Source of the DNA: an uncultured Candidatus Saccharibacteria bacterium
GTDB taxonomy: Bacteria > Patescibacteriota > Minisyncoccia > Phycocordibacterales > UBA918
Direction: 5' to 3'
Assembly (NCBI GenBank): GCA_964493145.1
Contig: CAZBMV010000001.1
Coordinates: 169,812-233,811 of the forward strand
Length of the DNA: 64,000 nucleotides
Numbering within the stretch: position 1 is the stretch's first letter; each line of letters begins with the position of its first letter. The position numbers and the translations under genes are program-made. The notes below the pieces were generated by a model. It did no database searches, was not told the DNA's origin, and saw only the letters and a list, made by a program, of their open reading frames with translations. Shown here one piece after another: positions 6,862-63,274 of this stretch.

Positions 6862-7278
6862 ATGGCAACAATTAATCAGTTAACGAAAAAGGGAAGAAAG
6901 AATCCTGGATCGCGCACAAAGACGGGTGCGCTTCGTTCCGGTTTTAATTCAATTACGAACCGTCCGAATTCGTACAGTTCTCCCTTTAAGCGCGGTGTAT
7001 GTACTCGCGTAACCACGAAGACTCCTCGCAAGCCGAACTCAGCCATTCGTAAAATTGCGCGCGTTCGCCTTACCAATCACCAGGAAATTACCGCGTACAT
7101 CCCAGGTATCGGGCACTCACTTCAGGAACACTCGGTGGTTTTGGTGCGTGGCGGCCGCGTGAAGGACATCGGTGTTAACTACACCATCGTCCGCGGTAAG
7201 TACGACGCAACCGGCGTAGACAAGCGTATGCGTGGACGATCACGTTACGGCGCAAAGAAGCCGAAGGGAGGAAAATAG
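6862..7278 (+). CDS. rpsL: 30S ribosomal protein S12
   Basis: [13 protein letters not shown]...PNSAIRK...VRGGRVKD typical S12; start at conserved MATINQ (ORF track begins 15 nt earlier). Confidence 0.95.
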
Positions 7279-7521
7279 ATCTTGGAAATTTGGTTCTGAG
7301 TCACAACTCGGAACCCTGTTTCTCAGATATATAATTTGAGAGAGGACAATAGTTTATATCCGCTATAGATCATTGCATGGAACATATGCGGAGAATGAGT
7401 TTGGCGTAGCCAACACTCTCAAAACAAGCAAACGACAGGAATTCTACCTGACCTCATTTAGACGAAACGGAGGTTGGTCTAGAAATTTCTAATCCATTAT
7501 TCATTCATAAGAAATTTTACA

Positions 7522-7995
7522 ATGCGACGACCAATCAAAAGACGACCAACGGTAACAAAAGATGAACGGTATGATTCAGTGAACGTATCGCGCCTCGTTA
7601 ATTACGTCATGGTTCGTGGACAGAAGGAAACCGCACGAAAAATAGTGTACGCGGCATTTGAAGAAATTAAGAACGCGAAGGAAGGCGGGGGTGACCCGGT
7701 AGAGATTTTTGAGACAGCAATCAGGAACGCTGGCCCACAGATGGAGGTTCGTTCACGACGAGTTGGCGGTGCGAACTACCAGGTCCCACGCGAGGTACGC
7801 CCGGAACGACGTCTCGCACTCGCGCTCCGATGGATTATCACCGCGGCACGAGGTCAGAAGGGAAAGCCGATGTTCAAAGCGCTCGCAGACGAAATAATGC
7901 TCGCCGCAAAGGAACAGGGTGCGGCGGTAAAGAAGAAGGACGATACGCACAGGATGGCGGAGGCGAACCGCGCATTTGCCCACTTCGCGTGGTGA
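7522..7995 (+). CDS. rpsG: 30S ribosomal protein S7
   Basis: 157 aa, [32 protein letters not shown] typical S7. Confidence 0.95.
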
Positions 7996-8241
7996 CCCAA
8001 AATCAAGGAGCGCAACGACTATGATTTTGGAGTCCGTCTAAAAATTCTATCTCTAATGAATTTTTAGACGAACGCGCTCTCAAAATTCAAAGAACTAAAC
8101 ATTTCAAAAAAGCCGCTCATCGTACACATGTACGACTCGCGGCTTTTTTGCTACCTGCCTCGTATCTCATTCAAATGTGCGTTTCTACACCATCTTTGTG
8201 CACGTGGTACAATTTCCCCATACAAGATAAATCACACAACC

Positions 8242-8664
8242 ATGCAGGAAGGATTACCGCACGAACGTAACGAGGAGACGCAGACACCGCAATTTGAAAA
8301 AGTTGAATCACTGCGCGATGTGTCTGAGAAGGTCGCTGAGTGGGGTGATCGTTTTGCGCGCATGTTGGAAAAACGGGGAGAGAGAATAGACCATGTCGGG
8401 ACGGTCATTGGAGAATTTGTTGCGTTTATAAAAGAACGCAATGATGAGTTTGTACGTGGTGCGGAACTAACGGGGGACTCTGAAACGGAACTTATCGTTT
8501 CGCGTATGGCAAGATTTAACGAGCGGCACATTGCCGAGATGGAAGAGGTATTGGATCTTATAGAAAACGATCCTGCGTCACTTGAAAACTTTATGAAGAC
8601 GTATCCCGCAGTCCGCGGAGTGATGGAGTGGGCACAGACGTTCATCACCGATACCGAAAAATAG
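8242..8664 (+). CDS. hypothetical acidic cytoplasmic protein
   Basis: ORF 8128..8664; likely start MQEGLPHE; no recognisable domain. Confidence 0.4.
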   Translation: MQEGLPHERNEETQTPQFEKVESLRDVSEKVAEWGDRFARMLEKRGERIDHVGTVIGEFVAFIKERNDEFVRGAELTGDSETELIVSRMARFNERHIAEMEEVLDLIENDPASLENFMKTYPAVRGVMEWAQTFITDTEK

Positions 8665-8742
8665 TTGCTTTTTTACAAAAACATTGTATAGTATAAAAAG
8701 AAGCCCTGCACACGGCAAGGGTCATTTTGAAGGAGGTACGAT

Positions 8743-9387
8743 ATGAAGGTGCATAAATTGTTGAGTTTGCTCGGATATGAAAATCCCGAACATGTCCTTG
8801 TGATGCTTGGTGAAGCTGAGGTGAAAGCGAAGCTTCTCGAGATACTTTCAGTACTTGAAGCTCTTTCTTTTCCTCACGAAGCGCGTGCTGTCAAGGAGTA
8901 CTTCAACCTTGAAGGAAATGGTCCAAAATCTTTGGATAAAATTGCTAAAGGTTTCGAGAGGCCAGTTACGCGCCTTCGTGTTACGCAGAGGATTTGTAAG
9001 GGTCTTGGCATGATGCGTTGTGATCCACAGCGTCTCATACTCTTGTCCGCGTACGAGGATTCATGTGGGAATCGAGACAGTCCTGAGATCCGGGCCTTAT
9101 TAGGCAAGATTAATAGAATTACCAAAGAACTTGAAAGGATGAATAAGGTTAATGGGATTTGCAAGAATTTGCCACCTGAAGCGTACCCTAAACACCCACG
9201 TTCGGTCTGTGCACTCGGTTTGAGTCGACAAGCGTTAGAAATCTTGCGCTATGCCGAGATTTACAGTATCGATGATCTTGTTCTGAGAAATGAAGAGGAA
9301 ATCTTATCGCTAGATCGTATGGGGCTGAAGCGTCTTGCTGAAATCAAGAAAGCGCTCGCTTCCCGTGGTTTGTTCTTACGAGCATGA
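8743..9387 (+). CDS. hypothetical DNA-binding protein: sigma-70 region-4-like HTH followed by RNA polymerase alpha C-terminal-domain-like HhH
   Basis: NLEGNGPKSLDKIAKGFERPVTRLRVTQRICKGL resembles sigma region 4.2; C-terminus LGLSRQALEILRYAEIYSIDDLVLRNEEEILSLDRMGLKRLAEIKKALASRGL matches the alphaCTD pattern (L.LS.R..N.L....I..I.DL......ELL....GKKS..EI...L...GL). Confidence 0.5.
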   Translation: MKVHKLLSLLGYENPEHVLVMLGEAEVKAKLLEILSVLEALSFPHEARAVKEYFNLEGNGPKSLDKIAKGFERPVTRLRVTQRICKGLGMMRCDPQRLILLSAYEDSCGNRDSPEIRALLGKINRITKELERMNKVNGICKNLPPEAYPKHPRSVCALGLSRQALEILRYAEIYSIDDLVLRNEEEILSLDRMGLKRLAEIKKALASRGLFLRA

Positions 9388-9409
9388 TTTACCTGTGATC
9401 CTCTCAAAG

Positions 9410-9445
9410 AGGCGCGACATCAATCGCGTCTCTTTTTTATTTCGT
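9410..9445 (+). terminator. rho-independent terminator after 8743..9387 (AGAGGCGCGAcatcaaTCGCGTCTCT + T-run)
   Basis: inverted repeat followed by TTTTTTATTT. Confidence 0.6.
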
Positions 9446-9593
9446 TTGCCCTGTACTGCGCTAGAAAAAGTCGGTTACCTAATCCTTCACAACACCAGTT
9501 CATTTATATATTGCAAAATGCGAATTTTGTGATATAATACGAAAAGTTTGAAGTTCTCATTTCAATCGCGAATTAAAGAATCAGGAGGATAAT

Positions 9594-9914
9594 ATGGCGA
9601 AACAGAAAGGTATTTGTGCTGGCGGGAAAGTGACAGGAAGCCACACAACAGTTGTTCCGGCAGCAAAGAAGGTGGTGGAAATCGCACATAAGTGCGATTG
9701 TGTTACAAAAATCGTCCTCGGATACATCAAGGCAGGACTTCCTTCAGCAAAAGGTCTTCGGAAGGTGAAGGTGTCGGAAAAAGAAGCGTGTCTTCTTTTC
9801 TCAGTGCGCGACAATACGACGCACCAAGAGATTTACGTCTACGGGAATAACCTTGTGCAGGCAAAAGAAGAAATAATGCACAATGTCCAAAAAGCGGGGT
9901 TTAAAATTCATTGA
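9594..9914 (+). CDS. hypothetical protein (106 aa) with strong Shine-Dalgarno
   Basis: AGGAGG 7 nt upstream of ATG; no recognisable domain. Confidence 0.45.
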   Translation: MAKQKGICAGGKVTGSHTTVVPAAKKVVEIAHKCDCVTKIVLGYIKAGLPSAKGLRKVKVSEKEACLLFSVRDNTTHQEIYVYGNNLVQAKEEIMHNVQKAGFKIH

Positions 9915-9953
9915 GTAGCAACCGGTGGTGACGTTTTTGTCACCACCGGTTTT

Positions 9954-10952
9954 TTAGTACCGCGGACGGCGACCATATCGTCGCGCAATGCGATAGATGA
10001 GAAATACGATACCGATGAGAAACACGAGCTCAATGAGAGCCGGTTGCCCGAGCGCGTGAGAGACAACCCAAAGTACAAACGTCCACAGGAGTGAAAGGAT
10101 GGACGCGACACTCGTGACAAATGCGCCGAGAATGCTCTGTTGCGTTTCAATCCTAGAGCGCGTTATGGTTGCGGCATCATTTCCTCCCACCGCACTCGTT
10201 GTTGCGATGCTTCCATTCGCCTTGCTGCCTATCGCCTCATTGCGCTCACGACGATACTCATCAAGCGCTGTTTTTGCATTCTCAATCTTGTCGGTCGCAT
10301 TTCCGAGAAGTGTGTCTGTCGTTCCTGCGGCAAGGTAGCGTTCAAGCCCGCGCTCCGGTTCGGTCAGAGACGTTTCAGATTTTGTTTTTACTTCAGCAGG
10401 TGCTTCCTCCACCTCTTCTTTTTCCGGTTCTACTCTCGTAGCGGTTTGCGCGACGAGAGGATTGCTCCCACGCTCCCTCTCATCTTCATCCGAGACACCG
10501 TCGTTGTCGTCGTCAGTGTCGGTCATGTTTCCCACACCGTCTCTGTCGGTATCGGTATCAATGGAGAGCGAATCGTCAATTGTTATTCCCGCGACATCAA
10601 GGGGCTGCGTTCCACCGCCGATGATATGGAGTGTCGCATCGGTTACCTGCGCGGTGATTGCATGCTCACCTTCCGTCGGTACCCAATCCACCCACGCCTC
10701 AACGAGTCGTCCCGAGAGTGCGCGTATCTCAGATGAACCGATACGCTTGCCGTTGTCGGCAAAACGAACGGTTCCGGTGAGGTCGTGCGGTGTGTTGTTG
10801 CGTACCGCTACGTATATACGCGTGGGGACACCGGTAAACACCGGTTCGGAAGAATACCAGAGGCCTTGTACGAATCCCGCATTGAGTTCACTTGAAAAAG
10901 CGAGCGCAGGGAAGAATAGTAAAAGCGCGAAAAGAAAAAAGGTCTGTCGCAT
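9954..10952 (-). CDS. secreted, C-terminally membrane-anchored protein with Asp-rich calcium-binding (thrombospondin-type-3-like) repeats
   Basis: signal peptide MRQTFFLFALLLFFPALAFS; DTDTDRDGVGNMTDTDDDNDGVSDEDE repeats; C-terminal hydrophobic anchor + RRYGRRPRY. Confidence 0.55.
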   Translation of the reverse strand: MRQTFFLFALLLFFPALAFSSELNAGFVQGLWYSSEPVFTGVPTRIYVAVRNNTPHDLTGTVRFADNGKRIGSSEIRALSGRLVEAWVDWVPTEGEHAITAQVTDATLHIIGGGTQPLDVAGITIDDSLSIDTDTDRDGVGNMTDTDDDNDGVSDEDERERGSNPLVAQTATRVEPEKEEVEEAPAEVKTKSETSLTEPERGLERYLAAGTTDTLLGNATDKIENAKTALDEYRRERNEAIGSKANGSIATTSAVGGNDAATITRSRIETQQSILGAFVTSVASILSLLWTFVLWVVSHALGQPALIELVFLIGIVFLIYRIARRYGRRPRY

Positions 10953-11021
10953 ATCTCTATTATCTCATACGGAAAAAAGAAAACACCTCGGAATATTCCG
11001 AGGTGCGTGGTATGTGTCGTG

Positions 11022-11408
11022 TTACATCATGAGCCCTCTCCCGAATGGGCTCTTTTGTATATCCAGCGCTTCTTTGGGGAGCGGCTTAATCCACCGTTCC
11101 CAGTGCTTTTTGACCGGGAGTAGCACCGCTTTGTTTTTACAGTTGACTCCGCGAGCAAATTTTTCACCGTCCTTCCACCAATATGTTTGCCCGGATGTAT
11201 CGTGGGGGCACGGTGAGTTTGCGGTGAAAAGCAAGTCCTTTCCGACCGTGATGAGCACGATTGTCTCGTGTCGTCCGACCCCCCTGATCTCAAGAATCCA
11301 CGAGTGGTCGTTTATCTGCTCCCACGGGGAGTCATTTTTATTCACCTGTGCTGTTGTAACTCCTGAAATGAAAAAGAACGTCAGAAAAACAAAAAAGCGC
11401 CAACTCAT
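11022..11408 (-). CDS. small secreted hypothetical protein
   Basis: 128 aa, N-terminal signal peptide MSWRFFVFLTFFFISGVTTA. Confidence 0.45.
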   Translation of the reverse strand: MSWRFFVFLTFFFISGVTTAQVNKNDSPWEQINDHSWILEIRGVGRHETIVLITVGKDLLFTANSPCPHDTSGQTYWWKDGEKFARGVNCKNKAVLLPVKKHWERWIKPLPKEALDIQKSPFGRGLMM

Positions 11409-11666
11409 GGCAACCCCTCCTTAAGTTATCACGGACAATGCAATCTGCATTATACCATATTTTATATAGTTTTCAAACCAAGACCTTTTGCGCGCAATAC
11501 AATTGCTTCGTGAGAATAAATATCGTATAGTATCCGCCATTAGGCCGCATCGGCCTTTTCTTTTCTTGTCTTGGCGGTTTTCCGCACGCGAAAAGGGGAG
11601 ATCAATCAAAACGTATTATTCATTTTGGTTTTATTAATAACATTCTGATTTCAGAACATATCCAAG

Positions 11667-11730
11667 ATTCTGGTCTCAGTATTTAACATTGACATTCTGG
11701 TTTCAGAATTCATTATTTAAGATTCATATT
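11667..11730 (+). promoter_or_regulatory. conserved promoter/leader element (copy 1, upstream of fusA) with TTGACA and TTCTG-N4-CAGAA palindromes; SD-less leader
   Basis: ~85% identical over ~65 nt to the sequence directly upstream of rplT (40124..40188, opposite strand), including the context of the start codon. Confidence 0.55.
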
Positions 11731-13905
11731 ATGGCCCGGGCATTTCCATTACATAAACTTCGCAACTTCGGTATCGTCGCGCACGTGGACGCAGGAAAGA
11801 CGACGACGTCTGAGCGTGTTCTCTTTTACACCGGCATGAGCCACAAAATTGGCGAGGTGCACGATGGCGCTACGGTGACCGACTGGATGGAACAGGAACG
11901 TGAACGCGGTATCACGATTACCGCCGCCGCGATCTCATGCAACTGGACACCATCCCTCATTGCCGATCGCAACAATGATGAACTCAAGTACACGTTCAAC
12001 ATTATTGATACCCCCGGACACATTGACTTCACCGCAGAGGTAAAGCGCTCAATGCGCGTGCTTGACGGCGCAGTCGTCGTCTTTGACGGCGTTGCGGGCG
12101 TAGAGCCACAATCAGAGACCAACTGGCGTTACGCAGACGAGGCGAACGTGCCACGTATCTGCTACATCAACAAGATGGACCGTACCGGTGCCGACTTTGA
12201 GCGTTCGTACGCGTCAATTCTCGCACGTCTCTCACCAAAGGCGGTTCGGTTTCAGATTCCATGGGGATCGGAAGACCAACTCAAGGGTGTGATTGACCTC
12301 CTCAAGATGAAGGCGTACACCTTTGAAGGTGAAATGGGAATGAAGGTTACCGAACATGAGATTCCCGAAGAACTCAAGGCAACTGCAGAAAAATACCACG
12401 CAGAACTCGTTGAGCGGATTGTTGAGCACGATGATGTACAGATGAATGCGTACCTTGAGGGTACGATTCCGAGTTACGAAGAACTCAAAGCAACGCTTCG
12501 CAAGGCGGTTATTGCGAACCAGATTTTCCCCGTTATGACCGGTTCATCTCTCAAGAATGTCGGAGTTCAACTTATTCTTGATGCCGTCGTCGATTACCTT
12601 CCGTCACCCGTTGACCTTCCTCCGGTGAAGGGGACAAATCCCGATACCGACGCAGAGGAGACTCGTGAAGCATCCGACGACGCACCGTTCTGTGCTCTCG
12701 CATTCAAACTTCAAACCGACCCATTCGTTGGTCAGCTCACCTTCTTCCGCGTGTACTCCGGTACGGTGAAAGCGGGAAGTTACATTTACAACGCAACGAC
12801 AGGCGAGAAGGAGCGTCTCGGTCGCATTGTGCGCCTCATGGCAGACAAGCGAACAGAGATTGAAGAGGTGTACGCAGGCGAAATTGCAGCGGGGGTGGGA
12901 CTTAAGGATGTGAAAACTTCACATACGCTCTGCGCTGAAGATAAACCAATCATTCTTGAACAGATCACCTTCCCCGAACCGGTGGTGTCAATGCGTATTG
13001 AGCCAAAGACAAAGAACGACCAGGAGAAGATGGGTATGGCAATGAAGAAGCTCTCAGATGAGGACCCAACGTTCAAGGTATCAACAGACGAAGAGACGCT
13101 CGAGACTATCATTTCAGGTATGGGTGAACTTCACCTTGAGATCATCGTTGATCGCATGAAGCGTGAGTTCGGCGTTGAGGCAAATGTTGGCAAACCACAG
13201 GTGGCGTACCGTGAGACCATTCAACGTCCTGCTGAGGCGGAGTACAAGTACATTAAGCAGTCAGGAGGTAAGGGTCAGTACGGTCACGTGAAGATTCGCA
13301 TTAAGCCGATGGAACCGCTTGAACTTGAAGAAGGAAAATCAATTCCAAAGAACATCACCCGTGAGGAACACTTTGAGTTCGTGAACAACATCAAGGGAGG
13401 TGTTATCCCGAACGAGTACATTCCTGCGGTCATGAAGGGGTGTAAGGAGGCGATGGCACGAGGATTTGTTGCCGGCTACAAAATGGAAGATATCAGTGTA
13501 GAACTCTACGACGGTACGTACCACGAAGTGGACTCATCCGAAATCGCCTTTAAGCTTGCCGCCATTCACGCGTTCAAAGAAGCAGCAAAACAGGCGGGTG
13601 CGGTGCTCCTTGAACCAATTATGAAGGTTGAGGTTACGACACCGGAGAAGTTCATGGGTGACGTGAACGGCAACATTAGTTCAAAGCGAGGACTCGTGGA
13701 GGGTATGGACGATCGTGGTATGGCGAAAGTCGTTCACGCGAAAGTTCCGCTTTCAGAAATGTTCGGGTACACGACTGCACTTCGCTCTATGACCGAAGGA
13801 CGTGCGTCCATGACGATGGAATTTGATCACTACGATGTCGTCCCACCAAACGTCGCCGCAGAAATTAAAAAAATGCGTGGCGTAAAGGAGGTTGAGGAAG
13901 AATAA
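11731..13905 (+). CDS. fusA: elongation factor G
   Basis: MARAFPLHKLRNFGIVAHVDAGKTTTSERVLFYTG.. canonical EF-G; start at MARAF (ORF track starts 42 nt earlier). Confidence 0.95.
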   Translation: MARAFPLHKLRNFGIVAHVDAGKTTTSERVLFYTGMSHKIGEVHDGATVTDWMEQERERGITITAAAISCNWTPSLIADRNNDELKYTFNIIDTPGHIDFTAEVKRSMRVLDGAVVVFDGVAGVEPQSETNWRYADEANVPRICYINKMDRTGADFERSYASILARLSPKAVRFQIPWGSEDQLKGVIDLLKMKAYTFEGEMGMKVTEHEIPEELKATAEKYHAELVERIVEHDDVQMNAYLEGTIPSYEELKATLRKAVIANQIFPVMTGSSLKNVGVQLILDAVVDYLPSPVDLPPVKGTNPDTDAEETREASDDAPFCALAFKLQTDPFVGQLTFFRVYSGTVKAGSYIYNATTGEKERLGRIVRLMADKRTEIEEVYAGEIAAGVGLKDVKTSHTLCAEDKPIILEQITFPEPVVSMRIEPKTKNDQEKMGMAMKKLSDEDPTFKVSTDEETLETIISGMGELHLEIIVDRMKREFGVEANVGKPQVAYRETIQRPAEAEYKYIKQSGGKGQYGHVKIRIKPMEPLELEEGKSIPKNITREEHFEFVNNIKGGVIPNEYIPAVMKGCKEAMARGFVAGYKMEDISVELYDGTYHEVDSSEIAFKLAAIHAFKEAAKQAGAVLLEPIMKVEVTTPEKFMGDVNGNISSKRGLVEGMDDRGMAKVVHAKVPLSEMFGYTTALRSMTEGRASMTMEFDHYDVVPPNVAAEIKKMRGVKEVEEE

Positions 13906-13931
13906 AGAAAGGTATAAGCAAAAACAAAAAA

Positions 13932-13956
13932 AGAGTGTCGCAAGACACTCTTTTTA
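13932..13956 (+). terminator. rho-independent terminator of fusA (AGAGTGTCgcaaGACACTCT + TTTTT)
   Basis: hairpin + T-run read directly. Confidence 0.65.
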
Positions 13957-14110
13957 CTAGTTCGTCCAGAATGCCCCGTACCGTTAGGGCGGGGATGAAT
14001 GGACATGAAAGTGGTAATGGCGGAGCCATTTCTCCTGCTAGCAAAAACGCCCCGGTTCCGCCCGCGTAATGCCCCGAGCGTGAGCTCGGGGGTAGCGAGG
14101 CGGACGTTTT

Positions 14111-14158
14111 TACATACTCACAAATCATTCGTTTAAACGAATGATTTGTGAGTATGTA
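14111..14158. repeat. 48-bp perfect palindrome (24-bp arms, no spacer) TACATACTCACAAATCATTCGTTTAAACGAATGATTTGTGAGTATGTA
   Basis: self-complementary; shares 14-bp core TTCGTTTAAACGAA with a second palindrome at 54608..54629. Confidence 0.8.
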
Positions 14159-14160
14159 TT

Positions 14161-14188
14161 ATAAAAAACACCCGCGCGAAGCGCGGGT
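14161..14188 (-). terminator. rho-independent terminator of 14203..14601 gene (CCCGCGCgaaGCGCGGG + T-run on minus strand)
   Basis: hairpin followed by TTTTTTAT on minus strand. Confidence 0.6.
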
Positions 14189-14202
14189 GTTCGGTGTATT
14201 AC

Positions 14203-14601
14203 CTAGTGGTGTTCCATATGGTGCTTGTGCTTGAGGAGCGTCCCCTTAATGCTGAAGACCACCTCAACGCGACTGTACTCACTGATTCTGCAAACCTCTG
14301 GCAAAAACATGACATTCTTTGTACCTTGTGGCAGGTACCTGCCGGCCATTCCTACGAGTCTTCGTTTACACAATTTTTCCAAATCGTGGATGGTGTCTCG
14401 TGTGAGACTCATACTCGGAAGATCGTCAACATTAAACGATTTGCCACTTTCAGTGCTTACTCGCAAGCGAACAGCCACTTCTGAAATATTTAGATTTACA
14501 TCATGTTGGTGTAGTGGTGACGTGGGTTCAACCCACACCTGAACGAAGTTGATGTTATCCAAGAACATGCGTCCAAGGAACGGAACAGCATTGGTATTCA
14601 T
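14203..14601 (-). CDS. hypothetical protein (132 aa, His-rich C-terminus)
   Basis: ORF with GAAAGGA SD-like upstream; no recognisable domain. Confidence 0.4.
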   Translation of the reverse strand: MNTNAVPFLGRMFLDNINFVQVWVEPTSPLHQHDVNLNISEVAVRLRVSTESGKSFNVDDLPSMSLTRDTIHDLEKLCKRRLVGMAGRYLPQGTKNVMFLPEVCRISEYSRVEVVFSIKGTLLKHKHHMEHH

Positions 14602-14697
14602 TCAAAATTTCCTTTCAAGGTTACAAATCTGCGCATACCATACCACACGGAAACATAAAGAAAAGCCCTGCGTACACGCAGGGCTTCCAAAAAGAAC

Positions 14698-15183
14698 TCA
14701 ATCGTTTGCACCGTCCTCATGTCGCTGGTGCCTCCGCCAGAGCTCACGTACCTCGGCGACGAGAATATCCGGTTTGAGCGAATGTTCCGTAATGTCGCGG
14801 ACAAGGCCATCGGGACCGAAGAGGTCTCGGTGACCGATGCAGAAGAGAACCAGAGGCGGGGTAATGCCGGTATGGGCAGGTGAAAATTCAAGTTCAAAAA
14901 CACATTTTGCATCATGGGCAGTCAGTTCCGGAAGAAATTCCGTGATGATGTTTTGCGTGTTTTCAACGATGAAATTGATAATATCGCCGATACCCTTTCC
15001 CGAGGCGTGGTACTCATCCCACGTGGTGAAGATTTTTGCCGGTGTCGCAATGAAGTGTTTGAGGGGGAGCGCGCTCCTCCTCCGCACCATTGCAACCGTT
15101 TGGCTTTCTTGCCATACACGAATCTTAAAATCTGCGTGATTCATGTGCCCCAAAGGAGCAACGTCGTTTTCTTTGGACTGCAT
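14698..15183 (-). CDS. hypothetical protein (~161 aa)
   Basis: ORF 14698..15240; internal ATG (MQSKEND) preceded by strong AGGAGGA SD chosen as start. Confidence 0.4.
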   Translation of the reverse strand: MQSKENDVAPLGHMNHADFKIRVWQESQTVAMVRRRSALPLKHFIATPAKIFTTWDEYHASGKGIGDIINFIVENTQNIITEFLPELTAHDAKCVFELEFSPAHTGITPPLVLFCIGHRDLFGPDGLVRDITEHSLKPDILVAEVRELWRRHQRHEDGAND

Positions 15184-15303
15184 ACGTCCTCCTAAAAAAG
15201 AACCACTCATGCCAACCATGAGTATGTGCACACAATACAAAATCGTGCTCTCCTCGTCAAAGAAAAAGACCCGCCGAAGCAGGTCTTTGTGTGTGACGAA
15301 CGT

Positions 15304-15771
15304 TCAGTGAACCCTCGTGATGGTGAGCTCCACGACGCGAAGCAACTTCCCGTCAGGAGTTGCGCTCCGTGGGTCTGACACGAACTTGTGTCCTCGTGAC
15401 GTATCAATATACTTCGTGATACGGAACTGAAAACAGTACCCGTTCTCCACGACCGTCGCCTTTGCGTTGAGGTCGCCCCCAACCGCACCTCCGAGAAGGG
15501 TAGCAACACGACCGAGGAGATCAAAATCGTTCGTGGTGCGTAGAAACTCACGGCGTCTGTTGCGGTCGTCAACTTCGTTTCCGCATTCTCCACGCACATC
15601 AGTGTGCACGTGGAGGATGCCGTACGAACCGCTTGCGGTTCCGAGCCCGTAGTGTACCGGCTGTGTAAAACTCTCCACCAGCACACTATGGAACATGTCC
15701 TCCATGAGCGCATGTCGTACGCAATCAAGAAAAACCTTCTTGTTTTCTTTTGCTATTTTTTCAATGCCCAC
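15304..15771 (-). CDS. hypothetical protein (155 aa), GTG start, translationally coupled to upstream ORF
   Basis: AAGGAG in the last codons of 15772..16050 ORF positioned 7 nt before GTG. Confidence 0.4.
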   Translation of the reverse strand: MGIEKIAKENKKVFLDCVRHALMEDMFHSVLVESFTQPVHYGLGTASGSYGILHVHTDVRGECGNEVDDRNRRREFLRTTNDFDLLGRVATLLGGAVGGDLNAKATVVENGYCFQFRITKYIDTSRGHKFVSDPRSATPDGKLLRVVELTITRVH

Positions 15772-16050
15772 TCAAAACTCCTTTCGTTTTAAAGACCAAT
15801 ACTTCTCGGCGGAAATTTCCACCGAAGCCGCTCTAATTAACCAGATAAGATGTTGTTTGTCAACAGGAGCATTATCTTGCAAAAAATATACCGTTCTTGT
15901 ACTATTGCGGTCACCGCACCAGAGTCTTCGTGATTTTGGTTGAGGGAGTTTTTGCTCTTTTTGACATGCAACTCCTCGGCACATAGAGGTAAGGCGGCGT
16001 TCTCGCGCCCTTTCCCCTGCGTACCACAGGAGTGCTTCTTTTATTTTCAT
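15772..16050 (-). CDS. hypothetical protein (92 aa)
   Basis: ORF only; no SD, no recognisable domain. Confidence 0.3.
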   Translation of the reverse strand: MKIKEALLWYAGERARERRLTSMCRGVACQKEQKLPQPKSRRLWCGDRNSTRTVYFLQDNAPVDKQHLIWLIRAASVEISAEKYWSLKRKEF

Positions 16051-16102
16051 ATAAAGGGAGTCGCCGTGTGCGGAATATTATTACTAGTATCATAGTACCA
16101 AG

Positions 16103-16175
16103 CACTTAGTACTTAGTTTTTCTAAAGTGAAAAACCACTAAGTACTTAGTACTAAGAACTAACTAACTAATTTTA
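16103..16175 (+). promoter_or_regulatory. cluster of palindromic heptamers ACTTAGT/ACTAAGT (TTAGTACTAA motifs) immediately upstream of tuf
   Basis: CACTTAGTACTTAGT...CACTAAGTACTTAGTACTAAG read directly, within 75 nt of tuf ATG. Confidence 0.4.
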
Positions 16176-16177
16176 TT

Positions 16178-17368
16178 ATGGCAGATTTTGATCGTTCAAA
16201 GCCGCACGTAAACGTCGGTACCATTGGTCACGTTGACCACGGAAAGACGACGCTCACCGCGGCGATTCTCAACGTACTCCATGCCAAGGGCAACGGGTAC
16301 GGTGCAACAACCAAGGGTGTCGATGAAATCGACAAGGCTCCGGAGGAGAAGGCCCGCGGTATTACCATTTCACTCTCGCACTCTGAGTACGAGACACCAA
16401 ACCGTCACTACGCACACATTGACGCGCCGGGTCACGCCGACTACATCAAGAACATGATTACGGGTGCCGCACAGATGGACGGCGCAGTACTCGTCGTTGC
16501 CGCAACGGACGGCGCGATGCCTCAGACTCGTGAACACGTGCTCCTCGCAAAGCAGGTGGGTGTGCCACGCATTATTGTATTCCTCAACAAGTGCGACATG
16601 GTTGAAGACGAGGAAATGATTATGCTCGTTGAAGAGGAACTTCGTGAGCTTCTCACGAAGAACGGCTTCGATGGCGCAAATGCACCTATCATCAAGGGTT
16701 CAGGTCTCAAGGCGCTTGAGGATCCTTCATCAGAGTGGGGTCAGAAGGTTCTTGATCTCGTAGATGCAATGGACACGTACTTCCCGCTTCCGGAACGTGA
16801 TCTTGATAAGCCATTCCTTATGCCTATTGAGGACATCTTCTCAATTGAAGGTCGTGGTACGGTAGTTACCGGTCGCGTAGAGCGCGGTATCCTTAAGGTT
16901 GGTGATGAAGTTGAGATTGTCGGTATCAAGGATACTGCAGTCACGACGGTGACCGGCGTTGAGATGTTCAACAAATCACTTGATCAAGCACAGGCGGGAG
17001 ACAACGCAGGTATTCTCCTCCGCGGTACAAAGAAGGAAGACGTTCACCGTGGACAGGTACTCGCAAAGAAGGGTTCGGTAACACCTCACACAGAGTTTGA
17101 AGCGGAGGTGTACGTTCTCTCAAAGGATGAAGGAGGTCGTCACACACCATTCTTCACCGGATACAAGCCACAGTTCTACGTTCGTACAACAGACGTAACG
17201 GGAGATGTGACGCTCGCAGAGGGTGTAGAGATGGTTATGCCGGGCGATAATGCAAAGTTCAAAGTCAAACTCGTTGCACCTGTTGCACTTGAAGAGAAAC
17301 AGAACTTCGCGATTCGTGAGGGCGGTCGTACCGTTGGTGCGGGCGTTGTTACAAAGATCATTGCGTAG
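16178..17368 (+). CDS. tuf: elongation factor Tu
   Basis: 396 aa; [26 protein letters not shown] motifs. Confidence 0.97.
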
Positions 17369-25157: not shown

Positions 25158-26162
25158 ATGAAAAGCACAGTATCTGGATTTTTCTGTACATTTGCTATAG
25201 CGATGCTTTTTGCATTACCAACTCAAATACAAGCGCAAACGGTTGCGACACCAACAATTGAAGAACTACGACAGCAAATCGCTGATTTGACTAGAATACT
25301 TAACCATCTTCTCTCAAATCAGTCCAAACAATCAAATTCAAGTGCTACGATTTCTACCACACAGGGTAATATGTGTAATTATGCACGCTCTATTACAAAA
25401 ACTCTCGCACAAGGAATGGTTGACCCACAAGTGACAATTCTTCAAAAATTTCTTAATCTGTCTGGCATACCTGTGGCAGTAAGTGGGCAGGGTTCGTCTG
25501 GGAATGAGACAAACTACTTTGGTCAAGGAACGAAATACGCTGTGCAATTGTGGCAAACAAAAAACAATGTGGTTTCCAGTGGTACACCTGAAACCACTGG
25601 CTATGGTGTTGTCGGTATGAGGACAAGGACAGCAATGCAAACGGTAAGTTGTAATACAGTTCCACAAAATGATAATGACATCGTGTGTACCACAGATGCA
25701 CGACGTTGCCCAGATGGTTCATACGTCTCGCGCGTCGCACCTACGTGTGAGTTCGCTGCATGTCCTGCAATTCCAACAGCATCAATCACAAGCAACCTTA
25801 CTGCAACAGTAAATAAAGCAAAGATTATTTCAGGTACCGCTACAAATGTTAACTCAGTTTACATGGTCATAACTAGGCCAAACGGAAGTGTTATTAATAC
25901 CGACATTGCGGTAGCAAATGGCTTGTGGTCGTATAACTATCCAGCAAGTACGTTTACTGTTGCAGGTAATTACCTTATAACTATTCGCGCTAATACGTAC
26001 AACGGTACCATACTCACTACTGGTACGTTAGTAGTAAGTAGTGATGACATCGTGTGTACCACAGATGCACGACGTTGCCCAGATGGTTCATACGTCTCGC
26101 GCGTCGCACCTACGTGTGAGTTCGCTGCATGTCCTGCAGGTTCCGGTAGTTCCGGTTGGTAA
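25158..26162 (+). CDS. secreted protein with peptidoglycan-binding (PG_binding_1-like) domain, Ig-like region and two identical Cys-rich modules
   Basis: signal peptide MKSTVSGFFCTFAIAMLFALPTQIQAQ; ..TILQKFLNLSGIPVAVSGQGSSGNETNYFGQGTKYAVQLWQ.. PG-binding-like; DDIVCTTDARRCPDGSYVSRVAPTCEFAACPA repeated twice. Confidence 0.6.
   Translation: MKSTVSGFFCTFAIAMLFALPTQIQAQTVATPTIEELRQQIADLTRILNHLLSNQSKQSNSSATISTTQGNMCNYARSITKTLAQGMVDPQVTILQKFLNLSGIPVAVSGQGSSGNETNYFGQGTKYAVQLWQTKNNVVSSGTPETTGYGVVGMRTRTAMQTVSCNTVPQNDNDIVCTTDARRCPDGSYVSRVAPTCEFAACPAIPTASITSNLTATVNKAKIISGTATNVNSVYMVITRPNGSVINTDIAVANGLWSYNYPASTFTVAGNYLITIRANTYNGTILTTGTLVVSSDDIVCTTDARRCPDGSYVSRVAPTCEFAACPAGSGSSGW
25675..25769 (+). repeat. 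95-bp exact direct repeat copy 1 (second copy 26044..26138) encoding the Cys-rich module
   Basis: identical nucleotide strings read directly; 369-bp period. Confidence 0.85.
26044..26138 (+). repeat. 95-bp exact direct repeat copy 2
   Basis: identical to 25675..25769. Confidence 0.85.
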
Positions 26163-34699: not shown

Positions 34700-35296
34700 A
34701 TGCAACCATTCACCATACTCTTCATTGGCCCTCAGGGGAGCGGAAAGGGGACCCAAATAGAACTTCTCACGAAACTTTTTCGTGATGCAGACCCTTCTCG
34801 CAGGGTGATTGATGTTCAGACCGGTCGCCGTTTTCGCGCATTGGCGACAAAGGGTGAGGGGTTCACCGAACGCAAGGTTGGTGAGACCGTTGATTCGGGG
34901 ATTCTCCAACCTCTCTTTCTCTCCGTGCTACTCTGGGGGGATGCGTTTCGTGAGCATGCCGACCCCGATTGCCACATACTCATAGACGGGTTTCCCCGCA
35001 CGAGAGCAGAAGCGGATGTCTTTGAAAGCGCGCTCTCCTTTTATAAACGTGACCACCTCGTTGTTATCAATTTGGAGGCGAGCGAAGACATTGTCCGCGA
35101 GCGCATGAAGAAACGTGCACGTTCCGACGACACCGATGCGTCAATTGAAGCACGGCTCGCGTGGTACCGAGAAGAGACTATCCCCGTACTCGCCTACTAC
35201 AGAAATCGGCCACATACAACGGTTGTTGACTGCGATGGCACCGCCTCAATCTCGGAGGTGTTTGAGCATGTAAAGGGCGCACTCGGACTTGCGTGA
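34700..35296 (+). CDS. adk: adenylate kinase
   Basis: MQPFTILFIGPQGSGKGTQ.. with AGAAGGAGA SD; the longer ORF-track reading (from 34343) is antisense overlap with the kinase paralog. Confidence 0.88.
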   Translation: MQPFTILFIGPQGSGKGTQIELLTKLFRDADPSRRVIDVQTGRRFRALATKGEGFTERKVGETVDSGILQPLFLSVLLWGDAFREHADPDCHILIDGFPRTRAEADVFESALSFYKRDHLVVINLEASEDIVRERMKKRARSDDTDASIEARLAWYREETIPVLAYYRNRPHTTVVDCDGTASISEVFEHVKGALGLA

Positions 35297-35375
35297 ACAG
35301 CGCGGGTACGTATTTTTTGTTTTAGTATCCAGCAGTACACTCCGATCTCAGTATTACCATTTTAAATTTCTACGT

Positions 35376-36149
35376 ATGGCACTCATCAAGACCGAAAAAG
35401 AAATAGAATTGCTGCACACGGGAGGGAAAATTCTTGCGCGAATCCTCCGCGAGCTTTCTGCGTACGTGAAGCCGGGGGTGACGACTGAGGATATCAATGA
35501 TTACGCGATAAAACTCACCGAAGAGTACGGTGTTGAGCCGGTTCTCTTAGGGTACCACCCCGAATTCGCACCACACCCGTACCCCGCGGCGCTCTGTACC
35601 TCGGTGAATAATACAGTACAGCACGGTATACCTCGTGAGGATGAAGTGCTCAAAGAGGGGGACATTATCAATCTGGATATGACGATTGGGTACAGGGGGA
35701 TGATTGTTGACTCGGGCGTGACAATCCCCGTGGGAAAGATTGATGAACGTTCACAAAAGCTCATAAACGTGACCAAGGAAGCACTCGCAATAGGCGTAAA
35801 GCAAGCGAAGGCGGGAAACCACATTGGCGATATTGGCCACGCGATTGAGACGTTTGTGAAATCACGTGGATTCAGTGTCGTGGAAGCACTCTGCGGTCAT
35901 GGCGTAGGGCACGCGGTGCACGAAGAACCGCAAATTCCGAATTTCGGTCGTGCCGGCACCGGACCGCGGATTGAGATTGGCAACGTGTTCGCCATTGAGC
36001 CTATTGTGAATGCGGGTAAAAAGGACGTTACCTTTGATGACGAGGGAGACGGGTACAGTGTCTACACAAAAGATGGTTCACGGAGCGCACACTTTGAACA
36101 CACGGTCGTCGTCACGAAGAGCGGCCCCGTGGTCGTGACGAAGGAGTAG
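35376..36149 (+). CDS. map: type I methionine aminopeptidase
   Basis: MALIKTEKEIELLHTGGKILARIL.. typical MAP1; metal ligands D..D..H..E..E present. Confidence 0.9.
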   Translation: MALIKTEKEIELLHTGGKILARILRELSAYVKPGVTTEDINDYAIKLTEEYGVEPVLLGYHPEFAPHPYPAALCTSVNNTVQHGIPREDEVLKEGDIINLDMTIGYRGMIVDSGVTIPVGKIDERSQKLINVTKEALAIGVKQAKAGNHIGDIGHAIETFVKSRGFSVVEALCGHGVGHAVHEEPQIPNFGRAGTGPRIEIGNVFAIEPIVNAGKKDVTFDDEGDGYSVYTKDGSRSAHFEHTVVVTKSGPVVVTKE

Positions 36150-39778: not shown

Positions 39779-40123
39779 TTATCCGACTTTTGAGAGGAAA
39801 CGTGCGAATGCCTCGGGACGCTCATCGGCAATGAGCGAGAGCATCTTGCGGTTGAGAAGAATGTTCTTCGTCTTGAGGTCCTTCATGAATACGCTGTACT
39901 TGAGACCTGCCGCTTTGAGACCTGCATTAAGACGGGTCGTCCAAAGTCTGCGGAAGTCATTCTTTTTGTCCTTGCGGTGTGCAAAAGAGTGAAGTTGCGC
40001 GTGGTGAATTGCCTCAATCGCTTGCTTCTTTTTCTTTGAGCGACCGAAACGGTACCCCTTTACCTGTGAGAGTATCTTACGACGGCGTTTCATTGCCATC
40101 ACTCCTCCTTTTACTCGTGCCAT
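39779..40123 (-). CDS. rplT: 50S ribosomal protein L20
   Basis: MARVKGGVMAMKRRRKIL.. typical L20. Confidence 0.92.
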   Translation of the reverse strand: MARVKGGVMAMKRRRKILSQVKGYRFGRSKKKKQAIEAIHHAQLHSFAHRKDKKNDFRRLWTTRLNAGLKAAGLKYSVFMKDLKTKNILLNRKMLSLIADERPEAFARFLSKVG

Positions 40124-40188
40124 AAAATAATCTTAAATGTTAAATTCTGAAACCAGAATGTGAATGTTAAATACTAAGACCAGAATGA
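40124..40188 (-). promoter_or_regulatory. conserved promoter/leader element copy 2 (upstream of rplT, between rpmI and rplT)
   Basis: reverse complement is ~85% identical to 11667..11730 upstream of fusA, including TTCTGGTTTCAGAA palindrome. Confidence 0.55.
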
Positions 40189-40211: not shown

Positions 40212-40400
40212 TTATGCATTCAAGAGAAAACGGTTCTTGTTGCGTGACGTTGTGCTGAGCACCTGTGTGCGACGACGTTCCTGGCGGGTACGACCGGACT
40301 GCTTCGCATTGAAGTGGTTTCGTCCCGGTTTGCGCGCAATGAGCTTGCCGTTCTTGGTCACCTTGATGCGCTTAGTGTAAGACTTATTTGTTTTAATCAT
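40212..40400 (-). CDS. rpmI: 50S ribosomal protein L35
   Basis: 62 aa basic protein, MIKTNKSYTKRIKVTKNGK.. L35-like. Confidence 0.85.
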   Translation of the reverse strand: MIKTNKSYTKRIKVTKNGKLIARKPGRNHFNAKQSGRTRQERRRTQVLSTTSRNKNRFLLNA

Positions 40401-40423: not shown

Positions 40424-40954
40424 TCAGCCTCCTTTCTTTCCGGATACTCGCTCCAGTGTTGTACTAAAACCCTTTGGACTCCTCTTTATTTCGTCGGCTA
40501 TTTTATACTCTGCGGGTATTATTTTCAAGAACCGTTCAAGTCGTTCTTTAAGGAATGACTCCTCCATGCCCTTGTAGCGTCCCCAGAGAAAGAGGTCAAC
40601 CTTCACCCGATGACCTTCCGTGAGCCATTCGGCGGCACGTTTCGCTTTCAGGTTTAGGTCGTGGTCGCCCGTACCGATCTTCACCTGAACGCTTTTGGTC
40701 TCGGTGACGTGTGATTTTGCTTTTATTTCCTTCGCCTTTTTGTTGATTTCGTACTGGTACTTTCCGTAATCCATTATCTTCGCAACGGGGGGCTGTGCCG
40801 TTGGAGAGATTTCAATGAGGTCAAGATTCGCTTCTTCCGCTAACTTTAGCGCATCTGCGGTAGGGAGAACACCAAGATTCTCGCCCTCTGCGCCAATGAC
40901 TCGGAGCTCTTTTGCTCGTATTGATCGGTTGATACGTACGTTGTCGTCTTTCAA
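40424..40954 (-). CDS. infC: translation initiation factor IF-3 (probable non-AUG TTG start)
   Basis: (M)KDDNVRINRSIRAKELRVIGAEGENLGVL.. typical IF-3; the ORF-track 268-aa reading is an upstream extension. Confidence 0.85.
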   Translation of the reverse strand: MKDDNVRINRSIRAKELRVIGAEGENLGVLPTADALKLAEEANLDLIEISPTAQPPVAKIMDYGKYQYEINKKAKEIKAKSHVTETKSVQVKIGTGDHDLNLKAKRAAEWLTEGHRVKVDLFLWGRYKGMEESFLKERLERFLKIIPAEYKIADEIKRSPKGFSTTLERVSGKKGG

Positions 40955-41095
40955 GGTTATAGAAACTATGCAAAAAGAGAGCAACGACAACGTCGTTAAC
41001 CCTCTCGGATACCGAAAATGTACCACATGTGATGGAAAAGAGCAATAAACCACAGGTTCTCGCAATGCATGACGGGAATGGTATACTATGTGCAC

Positions 41096-41494
41096 ATGAC
41101 ACGACGAAAGGTGACAGGAGAACAATCGGAAAGGCGCGGGAACCCGTTCATGTTTGCGGGTGGTGTTGTTGGTGCCGGCATTGTGGTCATGGGACTCGCC
41201 ATTCTCATCGGAAAATCCGACAGTGGGCAAATCAATGTCGCCGCGACGATACAGGAATCAAACCAGGCGCAATCGGAAAGTGGTGGTGAACAGGTGAGCT
41301 CAGTACCTCAAGCCTTTCAAAATATGCCGAACGGAGGTCTCGTACCTCAAGAGAATCAGGTGAACACACCTCCGGCGCCTGAACCGAGTGAGGCAACCGT
41401 AATTGACGACACGGCGAGCACGACACAAACTGAAGGAGATGATGTCGTTGGACAGGAAACAGAAACCTCCGAAACGGAATCAACTGATTTGTAA
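41096..41494 (+). CDS. small membrane-anchored hypothetical protein with acidic low-complexity tail
   Basis: one TM helix (FMFAGGVVGAGIVVMGLAILIG) then Q/E/T-rich tail. Confidence 0.35.
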   Translation: MTRRKVTGEQSERRGNPFMFAGGVVGAGIVVMGLAILIGKSDSGQINVAATIQESNQAQSESGGEQVSSVPQAFQNMPNGGLVPQENQVNTPPAPEPSEATVIDDTASTTQTEGDDVVGQETETSETESTDL

Positions 41495-54642: not shown

Positions 54643-54746
54643 TTTGTCCGTCCTCTTGGACTCGAACAAAGGACCACCGAGGTATATAAAATTAAAAAAT
54701 CCTTTGTCCGCCCGCTTGGACTTGAACCAAGGACCACCGAGGTATA
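54643..54746 (-). repeat. two tandem degenerate copies (~45-58 nt each) of the 3' half (anticodon loop to acceptor end) of the adjacent tRNA
   Basis: TATACCTCgGtGGTCCTTtGTTCGAGTCCAAGAGGACGGACAAA and TATACCTCgGtGGTCCTTGGTTCaAGTCCAAGcGGgCGGACAAA vs tRNA 3' half. Confidence 0.75.
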
Positions 54747-54762
54747 GAAATTCAAATTTTTG

Positions 54763-54836
54763 TCCGTCCTCTTGGACTCGAACCAAGGACCGCAGAGGTA
54801 TAAGCTCTGTGCTCTAACCAACTGAGCTAAGGACGG
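54763..54836 (-). tRNA. tRNA with anticodon UAU (formally Ile, AUA-reading); 74 nt, C1-G72, no encoded CCA
   Basis: cloverleaf by eye: CCGTCCT-TA-GCTC-AGTTGGTTA-GAGC-A-CAGAG-CTTATAC-CTCTG-CGGTC-CTTGG-TTCGAGT-CCAAG-AGGACGG-A. Confidence 0.55.
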
Positions 54837-62608: not shown

Positions 62609-63274
62609 ATGATAACCCCAAAACAGAAGCAAATATACGACTTCATTGTTTCGTATTCCAAAGAGCACGGTTCCTCGCCCTCTTTGGAGGAGATTGCAGG
62701 CCATTTTGACTTTCTACAATACCCGTCATCGGCGCACTACCATGTTAAGAAGCTCCAAAGTGAGGGGTATTTGGAGCGCGAATCAAACCGACCACGTTCT
62801 ATTGGTATCTACGCGGATAAAACGGTCAAGACACCGATCTTTAGGAAAACTGGAATGGACGCGGTGCGAGTCCCGGTACTCGGTGCGGCAAACGCCGGAC
62901 CAGCAACACTCTTTGCGGAAGAGAATGTAGCCGGTTACTTAAAAGTGTCTCGTAGTACGCTCAATCGCCGCGACGGCGTTTTCGCGTTGCGCGTTGAGGG
63001 CGACTCTATGAACTGTGCAAAGATTGATGGAAAGAATCTTGAAGAAGGCGACTTCGTGCTAATTGACTCAACGTACCGAACGCCAAGAAATGGAGATTAT
63101 GTGCTTTCCGTTATTGACGATTGTGCGAATCTAAAGAAATTTCAAAGAGATCCGAAGACTGGGAATGTCATGCTTGTTTCTGAATCAAAAAATCCCAAAC
63201 ATAAGCCAATATATGTTTCGAGTGATGACGATTATATGGTCAATGGAAAGATCATTAAAGTGATAAAGAAATAA
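62609..63274 (+). CDS. LexA-family repressor (winged-HTH + S24 self-cleaving peptidase domain)
   Basis: N-terminal wHTH (..SLEEIAGHF..); Ala-Gly cleavage-site region (VLGAANAGPATLF), catalytic GDSM serine and downstream Lys (LKKF). Confidence 0.8.
   Translation: MITPKQKQIYDFIVSYSKEHGSSPSLEEIAGHFDFLQYPSSAHYHVKKLQSEGYLERESNRPRSIGIYADKTVKTPIFRKTGMDAVRVPVLGAANAGPATLFAEENVAGYLKVSRSTLNRRDGVFALRVEGDSMNCAKIDGKNLEEGDFVLIDSTYRTPRNGDYVLSVIDDCANLKKFQRDPKTGNVMLVSESKNPKHKPIYVSSDDDYMVNGKIIKVIKK

Follow-up and report, generated by a model that had tools for sequence, protein, structure and literature searches.

A candidate core-promoter cassette with leaderless architecture, shared by fusA and rplT in an uncultured bacterium of the candidate phyla radiation

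In the transcriptomes of Mycobacterium and Deinococcus, leaderless genes carry the -10 box at a spacing of 6-7 nt from the start codon, an arrangement that corresponds to 'group C' of GeneMarkS-2, and a sharp peak of the hexamer TAnnnT at this position is the outcome of leaderless transcription in other phyla. The rplT operons of other bacteria are autoregulated by the binding of L20 to leader RNA (Rfam L20_leader). Sequence pairs that share 80% identity or more over 50 nt or more, located upstream of unrelated genes, have been described as 'putative mobile promoters' (PMC3575422). Here we describe an element shared by the upstream regions of fusA, encoding EF-G, and rplT, encoding ribosomal protein L20, in a stretch of 64,000 nt (contig CAZBMV010000001.1, positions 169,812 to 233,811; hereafter, the window) from an ultra-small, uncultured Candidatus Saccharibacteria bacterium of the candidate phyla radiation (CPR). 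By the names that EF-G homologues bear in their source records, the genome falls among Candidatus Kaiserbacteria/Paceibacterota, within the CPR (Patescibacteria). The element is probably, though by no means certainly, a lineage-specific core-promoter cassette for leaderless or nearly leaderless transcripts, of which the upstream half was amplified in tandem and the copies were homogenised between the two loci.

The longest inverted pair detected in the 64-kb window by the repeat finder was that of positions 11667-11724 (+) and 40129-40186 (-), 58 nt in length and 91% complementary. By global alignment, the approximately 65 nt upstream of fusA and rplT, together with the ATG, were identical at 60 of 69 positions (87%), in good agreement with the original prediction, a model's reading of the sequence, that about 65 nt before both ATGs would be about 85% identical. 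The same prediction had named identity below about 70%, or a match of AT-rich low complexity, as evidence to the contrary, and neither was observed: the A+T content of the shared element is 72-75%, and the local alignment score of the two upstream regions was 52 against a maximum of 21 among 5000 composition-matched shuffles, indicating that the match is not an artefact of AT-richness. The 44-nt consensus proposed at that stage matched exactly at two positions in the window, the fusA and rplT sites, where none was expected from 100 shuffles. At both genes, the element spans approximately -65 to -1 relative to the start codon, and the two copies are located on opposite strands, 28 kb apart. Since EF-G and L20 are unrelated, non-paralogous proteins, the pair represents a similarity between upstream regions of different genes, with length (58 nt) and identity (91%) above the values of 50 nt and 80% used for putative mobile promoters. 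The element was also found in a close relative, in four to five independent assemblies (loci L065-L067 and L069-L072), and is therefore not an assembly artefact.

The element is organised as a tandem array of 25-27-bp units with the consensus ATTCTGGTYTCAGWATTTAACATT. Three units are present at fusA, starting at 11642, 11667 and 11694 (+), and two at rplT, starting at 40186 and 40159 (-), and at both genes the last unit continues into TTTAAGATT. At fusA, the distal unit u0 (11642-11657, +; ATTCTGATTTCAGAAC) contains a perfect TTCTG-N4-CAGAA palindrome, with a 3' flank that has diverged from the other units; it is followed by u1 (11667-11693, +; ATTCTGGTCTCAGTATTTAACATTGAC) and by u2 (11694-11717, +), which includes the -35-position hexamer TTCTGG (11695-11700), a 17-nt spacer and the perfect palindrome TTCTGGTTTCAGAA (11695-11708). 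At rplT, u1 (40160-40186, -; ATTCTGGTCTTAGTATTTAACATTCAC) is followed by u2 (40136-40159, -), with TTCTGG at 40153-40158, a 17-nt spacer and the same derived variant, GGTTTCAGAAT, as in u2 of fusA. The -10-like hexamer TAAGAT, assigned on the basis of the positional enrichment of TAnnnT (see below), is located at 11718-11723 (+) and at 40130-40135 (-), its 3' end being 7 nt before the ATG of fusA and 6 nt before that of rplT. Inspection of the sequence places TTCTGG 17 nt before TAAGAT at both genes; when the diverged copy before map (see below) is included, TAAGAT or TAAATT ends 6-7 nt before ATG in every copy, with TTCTGG 17-18 nt further upstream.

The palindrome boxes are located at 11643-11656, 11668-11681, 11695-11708 and 40145-40158, with an imperfect box at 40172-40185, and three of these five are perfect 5+5 palindromes; with one mismatch allowed, the box pattern gave six matches in the window against 2.25 expected. 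Near-palindromic boxes had been predicted at both genes, with an extra one at fusA, and this was borne out. The TTGACA predicted to abut the fusA palindrome is also present (11689-11694, +), and could be an alternative -35 hexamer, paired with CATTAT at a spacing of 16 nt. It arises at the junction of units u1 and u2, its rplT counterpart is TTCACA, and it is not conserved, as the close relative has AGTAAC at the matching position.

The product of fusA (11731-13905, +; EF-G of 724 aa, start ATG GCC CGG) matched TIGR00484 with 1039.7 bits over residues 1-716, aligned from residue 1. The predicted start codon is real, but the position given for it, 11733, is that of the G, the ATG itself beginning at 11731. 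The rplT gene (39779-40123, -; L20 of 114 aa, start ATG GCA CGA with the ATG at 40123; TIGR01032) is preceded by rpmI (40213-40400, -) and infC (40424-41230, -). Within codons 5-9 of rplT, AAAGGAGGAGTGATG (40097-40111, -) resembles a Shine-Dalgarno (SD) sequence followed by a start codon, and several L20 sequences of relatives in databases have 106 aa, eight residues below the 114-aa form, which fits a start called at this internal ATG. The true start is nevertheless the upstream ATG, as shown by the conserved N-terminus MARVKGG.

SD-like motifs were found at only 4 of the 37 gene starts in the window that were assigned through orthologous called genes of the relative, at 17 of the 96 called genes of five related loci (L065, L068, L069, L073 and L076), and at only 1 of 26 tightly packed operon-internal genes, including genes in the ribosomal-protein cluster. 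No SD-like motif was present within 18 nt upstream of fusA, rplT or map, and the start codon of these three genes was ATG in all copies. The original prediction was thus correct for the lack of SD sites at fusA and rplT but not for its view that most other genes carry strong AGGAGG sites. As most genes here lack SD, its absence is not a mark of fusA and rplT and discriminates poorly. The position of TAnnnT matches that in leaderless genes: of 79 SD-less genes, 20 have the 3' end of this hexamer at exactly 6 or 7 nt from the start codon, where the frequencies at other offsets predict about 4.6 (Poisson p = 9e-8, in a count that includes orthologous, non-independent genes). At this position the hexamer was found in 17 of the 67 genes that either have a divergent neighbour or are preceded by a gap of 40 nt or more, and in 3 of the 26 tightly packed internal genes, a trend with p = 0.12. 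The fusA, rplT and map genes all follow this pattern, and likewise in the close relative. Altogether, this lineage appears to initiate translation for the most part without SD sites, and in part on leaderless transcripts. A literature search yielded no paper describing leaderless transcription or SD usage specifically in CPR bacteria (Patescibacteria).

Comparison with related genomes indicated how the two copies came to be so similar. In the close relative (ENA k119_22470 plus three to four other assemblies), of which EF-G and L20 are 97% and 96% identical to those of the window, one proximal unit of the form TTC[T/A]GGTCTCAGTATTTAACATT(T)TAAGATTATTTT-ATG is present at both fusA and rplT, with an additional degenerate distal unit at fusA. 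No box was detected upstream of the respective genes in L079 (EF-G 96%), L076 (EF-G 94%) and L073 (L20 81%), L081 (EF-G 93%), L082 (L20 89%) or the complete Kaiserbacteria genome CP064968.1 (L068; EF-G 92%), in the last of which a TAGATT-6 nt-ATG core remains at fusA. The length of the rpmI-rplT spacer follows the number of units, from 30 nt where there is none to about 61 nt with a single unit (the close relative) and 89 nt with two (the window). Compared with the one unit present in the close relative, the u1 units of the window are identical at 22-23 of 24 positions, and u1 of fusA, orthologous to that unit, at 23 of 24. The extra 27-nt unit u2, with two identical substitutions (GGTTTCAGAAT), is present at both loci of the window and at neither locus of the close relative, and the derived sequence makes its palindrome perfect. 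An identical 27-nt insertion with two identical substitutions at both loci is best accounted for by copying between fusA and rplT after the genomes split. Between the window and the close relative, fusA DNA is 87% identical (13% differ) and the third codon positions of rplT are 77% identical (23% differ), and thus the two element copies within the window, with 87-91% identity, resemble each other no less than orthologous coding DNA does between the genomes. Recent copying between the loci, and not an ancient conserved operator, best explains why the fusA and rplT copies are nearly identical; gene conversion is the putative mechanism. Inversion of the 28-kb segment between the inverted copies was also considered, but no evidence for it was obtained, gene order and orientation being unchanged in the relatives.

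A possible third copy was located upstream of map (35376-36149, +), the gene for methionine aminopeptidase (Peptidase_M24), where CTCCGATCTCAGTATTACCATTT, TAAATT (35363-35368), 7 nt and the ATG at 35376 follow each other (35340-35375, +). This region (35339-35378) was touched by two independent sub-pattern searches, and the upstream region of the map ortholog of the close relative reads TTCCGGTCACGGCATTTAACATTT-TAAATT-7 nt-ATG, the two map sites retaining different parts of the fusA/rplT consensus. With a profile made from the four fusA/rplT sequences, map being excluded, the map sites were among the best non-self matches, with E = 0.012 for the relative and 0.91 for the window. The upstream region of map is therefore regarded, with moderate confidence, as a diverged member of the element.

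On the basis of these observations, the proximal part of the element, approximately 40 bp, would act as a core promoter, in which TTCTGG at -35, a 17-18-bp spacer with ATTTAACATT, TAAGAT (TAAATT at map) and 6-7 bp precede the ATG. RNA polymerase so placed would begin transcription on the A of the ATG or a few bases away at most, yielding mRNAs of fusA, rplT and, in the diverged form, map that have no leader or almost none. These genes usually belong to conserved operons (str, infC-rpmI-rplT and spc, respectively), and here they may have been severed from the upstream promoter, or supplemented relative to it. A terminator-like hairpin with a T run (11542-11556) lies upstream of the element at fusA, and another, following adk (35287-35307), precedes the map copy, so that a new promoter would be needed at both genes. 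For rplT, the proposal that the element creates an internal promoter within infC-rpmI-rplT gained support, since a promoter-like sequence directly precedes the ATG in a spacer of 89 nt, as against 30 nt where the element is missing. The upstream half would have been duplicated in tandem by steps of 25-27 bp, giving rise to the repeated TTCTG-N4-CAGAA boxes, and the fusA and rplT copies would have been kept alike by short-patch gene conversion, i.e., by concerted evolution.

Several observations weigh against this model. TTCTGG matches TTGACA poorly and the -10 hexamer is not TG-extended, leaving the strength of the predicted promoter uncertain without an activator; no terminator was found between rpmI and rplT; and neither fusA of L079 nor rplT of L082 has TAnnnT at 6-7 nt. 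In addition to the non-independence of the genes in the TAnnnT count, the lack of SD at 25 of the 26 operon-internal genes implies that SD-independent internal initiation exists, and therefore the absence of SD alone is no proof of leaderless transcription. A conserved distal promoter-like site and a structured element are located about 130-220 nt upstream of fusA in six genomes, and fusA may also, or instead, be transcribed from this distal site, the shared element then being inside a long 5' untranslated region. Finally, the copy number of two to three loci (fusA, rplT and the diverged map copy in the window) is that of the sequences covered, the 64-kb window and about 42 kb of the close relative.

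The repeated boxes raise the possibility that they are binding sites for a dimeric transcription factor, overlapping the -35 region and co-regulating fusA, rplT and perhaps map, a proposal that is compatible with the promoter model and yet rather improbable. With box centres near -29.5, -56.5 and -81.5 at fusA, the sites are located where activators and repressors usually act, three are perfect 5+5 palindromes in the window, and the u0 box (11643-11656) kept its palindrome despite the diverged flank. All three genes are translation genes, activator dependence is possible as neither a good -35 nor an extended -10 is present in comparison with other promoters there, and the map copy of the relative carries a symmetric change (TTCCG...CGGCA) that keeps 4/5 half-site symmetry. 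In the fusA and rplT boxes of the relative and the map box of the window, however, half-site symmetry is only 2-4 of 5; the best-conserved block in the alignment is the non-palindromic ATTTAACATT; the box spacing of 25 and 27 bp is not a whole number of helical turns; and the boxes are missing in relatives at 92-96% EF-G identity that retain these genes. Furthermore, no copy precedes any regulator gene or any of about 30 other translation genes in the window, the 64-kb window and about 42 kb of the close relative gave no further copies despite the dozens of other translation genes in them, and no candidate factor was found. To our knowledge, as judged by informal comparison, the boxes do not fit the operator consensuses of CodY, the ARG box, the LexA types, parS, the DnaA box or the sigma-54 -24/-12 elements. 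A stronger version, that the boxes are a real operator array of a putative dimeric regulator recruited very recently together with the leaderless cassette, bringing the regulation of fusA, rplT and map together in a single Kaiserbacteria-like lineage, is more doubtful still; if true, it would represent the observable birth of a translation-gene regulon in a CPR bacterium through promoter-plus-operator copying and tandem site amplification. The LexA homologue encoded in the window (62609-63274, +; LexA_DNA_bind plus Peptidase_S24) has TTTCAA-N17-TTGAAA and a GTATAC palindrome in its upstream region, in which no TTCTG-N4-CAGAA box was found.

The similarity could instead reside in the mRNA. On longer transcripts, namely those of infC-rpmI-rplT, of adk-map and of fusA with a long leader, the shared AU-rich sequence AUUUAACAUUUAAGAUUAUUUU-AUG-GCA may offer ribosomes an unstructured site to bind, of the S1/AU-rich enhancer type, with no promoter being involved. 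With SD missing from most genes, those internal to operons among them, SD-independent initiation of this kind must be common; almost no structure is predicted for the element, as is usual for such regions; and both the missing terminator between rpmI and rplT and the conserved distal site and leader of fusA agree with longer transcripts. A generic AU-rich site, however, would not call for tandem 27-nt units or for a match of 87-91% across some 60 nt; no similarity to the element was seen at other SD-less genes; at fusA and map the element is preceded by terminator-like hairpins; and the sharp TAnnnT peak at exactly 6-7 nt is a promoter signature rather than a reflection of AU-richness. This explanation is considered unlikely, though it is a serious alternative to the promoter model. 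A structured cis-regulatory RNA common to the fusA and rplT mRNAs, such as an autoregulatory leader for L20 or another ribosomal protein, is suggested by the L20 autoregulation of rplT operons in other bacteria and by the ability of the boxes to form 5-bp hairpins, but it is largely refuted and retains very little probability: folding of the two copies was no better than that of shuffles (z = -0.25 and -0.99), the hairpin stems are not kept in the close relative, and Rfam gave only noise at gathering and permissive thresholds, with L20_leader absent from the match lists. The conserved leader of the original prediction, if read as an RNA function, thus found no support. Equally improbable is a miniature mobile element of the REP (repetitive extragenic palindromic) or MITE (miniature inverted-repeat transposable element) type, inserted in two intergenic regions by chance. 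Short intergenic palindromes repeated at unlinked loci would agree with such an element, but the 64 kb contain only two to three loci, at all of which the element is in register with the start codon; it is flanked by neither terminal inverted repeats nor target duplications, and no transposase is nearby. Rfam and tRNA scans were negative at the fusA and rplT sites, and no known insertion sequence (IS), tRNA or RNA family accounts for the element. Public collections yielded only chance matches: the two-box pattern, too strict in hindsight as the close relative has one box per locus, gave 64 chance-level matches in unrelated taxa among the genome contigs and no paired matches in a CPR genome, the single-unit pattern gave two chance matches among the metagenome contigs, and a pattern scan of the viral contigs gave three.

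The surroundings of fusA and other parts of the window showed additional features. The distal site upstream of fusA (11506-11606, +) consists of a promoter-like TTGCTT-17-TATAGT, followed by a structured element of about 76 nt, in which a hairpin P1 with a U tract precedes a variable hairpin P2 enclosed by the pairing of a CU-rich tract with a GGAAGGGGAG tract. Both the site and the element are kept in six CPR genomes, including those without boxes, the corresponding regions of the relatives being L065:9820-9894, L068:9876-9948, L076:2902-2976, L079:1771-1834 and L081:2877-2938. Its folding z was -2.59, with compensatory changes in 4 of 18 pairs, and a covariance model made from five sequences detected it only upstream of fusA, including two loci outside the training set (E = 9e-6). 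No Rfam match was obtained for this element, a possible small RNA or else a leader or attenuator of fusA. In this region (6862-17368), the classical str operon is broken up: inserted genes, in part on the opposite strand, come after rpsL (6862) and rpsG (7522), fusA (11731) stands alone, and opposite-strand genes then precede tuf (16178); the inserted genes vary among relatives. About 200 nt downstream of fusA, between convergent genes, a perfect AT-rich palindrome of 48 bp was found (14111-14158; 24+24 nt without spacer). Elsewhere, the gene for tRNA-Ile with the anticodon TAT (54762-54836, -) is followed on its strand by two tandem partial copies of its 3' part (54 nt, 78-87% identical; region 54643-54836), which could be integration remnants or tandem pseudo-tRNAs. 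A perfect 95-nt direct repeat (25675-25769 and 26044-26138, +; 369 nt apart) lies within an open reading frame (25158-26162) that belongs to a patch of low GC content (0.44) midway in the ribosomal-protein gene cluster.

If the core-promoter model is true, a streamlined genome re-equips genes cut from ancient operons by copying a ready-made promoter of about 40 bp, with conversion keeping the copies alike. The data also point to a sizeable set of apparently leaderless transcripts in CPR bacteria and to a near-absence of SD sites even within ribosomal-protein operons, both of which are barely described, and which bear on gene calling and start-codon assignment in CPR genomes. The case itself is a small, lineage-specific reuse of a promoter, and no new regulatory mechanism or system is revealed by it.

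Among the known systems, the control of infC-rpmI-rplT by L20, through the translational operator of Escherichia coli or the L20_leader attenuator of Bacillus (RF00558), involves the same operon and a regulatory sequence tied to rplT expression. Those regulators, structured RNAs that imitate 23S rRNA, lie before rpmI or infC, whereas the present element is located between rpmI and rplT, is unstructured, has no Rfam model and is common to fusA. Palindromic operators over the -35 region, such as repressor or class II activator sites, resemble it in the 14-bp inverted repeats centred near -30 with more copies upstream, but differ in that symmetry here is not kept in the nearest relative, no regulon extends beyond two to three genes, and the factor is only putative. 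With the promoters of leaderless genes in Mycobacterium, Deinococcus and Streptomyces, in which the -10 box lies 6-8 nt before the start, the element shares the TAnnnT spacing, the lack of SD and the enrichment at the genome level; unlike in those hosts, the bacterium here belongs to the CPR, operon-internal genes also lack SD, and the start site is predicted from sequence. The closest resemblance is to the putative mobile promoters, similar upstream sequences before non-homologous genes of one genome, which, like the element described here, are not IS, tRNA or known RNA motifs and for which the means of spread is not established (Matus-Garcia, Nijveen & van Passel 2012; PMC3575422). The survey considered positions -150 to -50 (PMC3575422), so that the present element, at approximately -65 to -1, falls outside its operational definition; unlike the surveyed sequences, it includes the -10 hexamer and the start codon context, and it directly documents continuing homogenisation between copies as well as tandem duplication of the upstream half. 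The best-supported reading is thus that the element represents promoter reuse with a leaderless architecture, which falls under the putative mobile promoters already described (PMC3575422).

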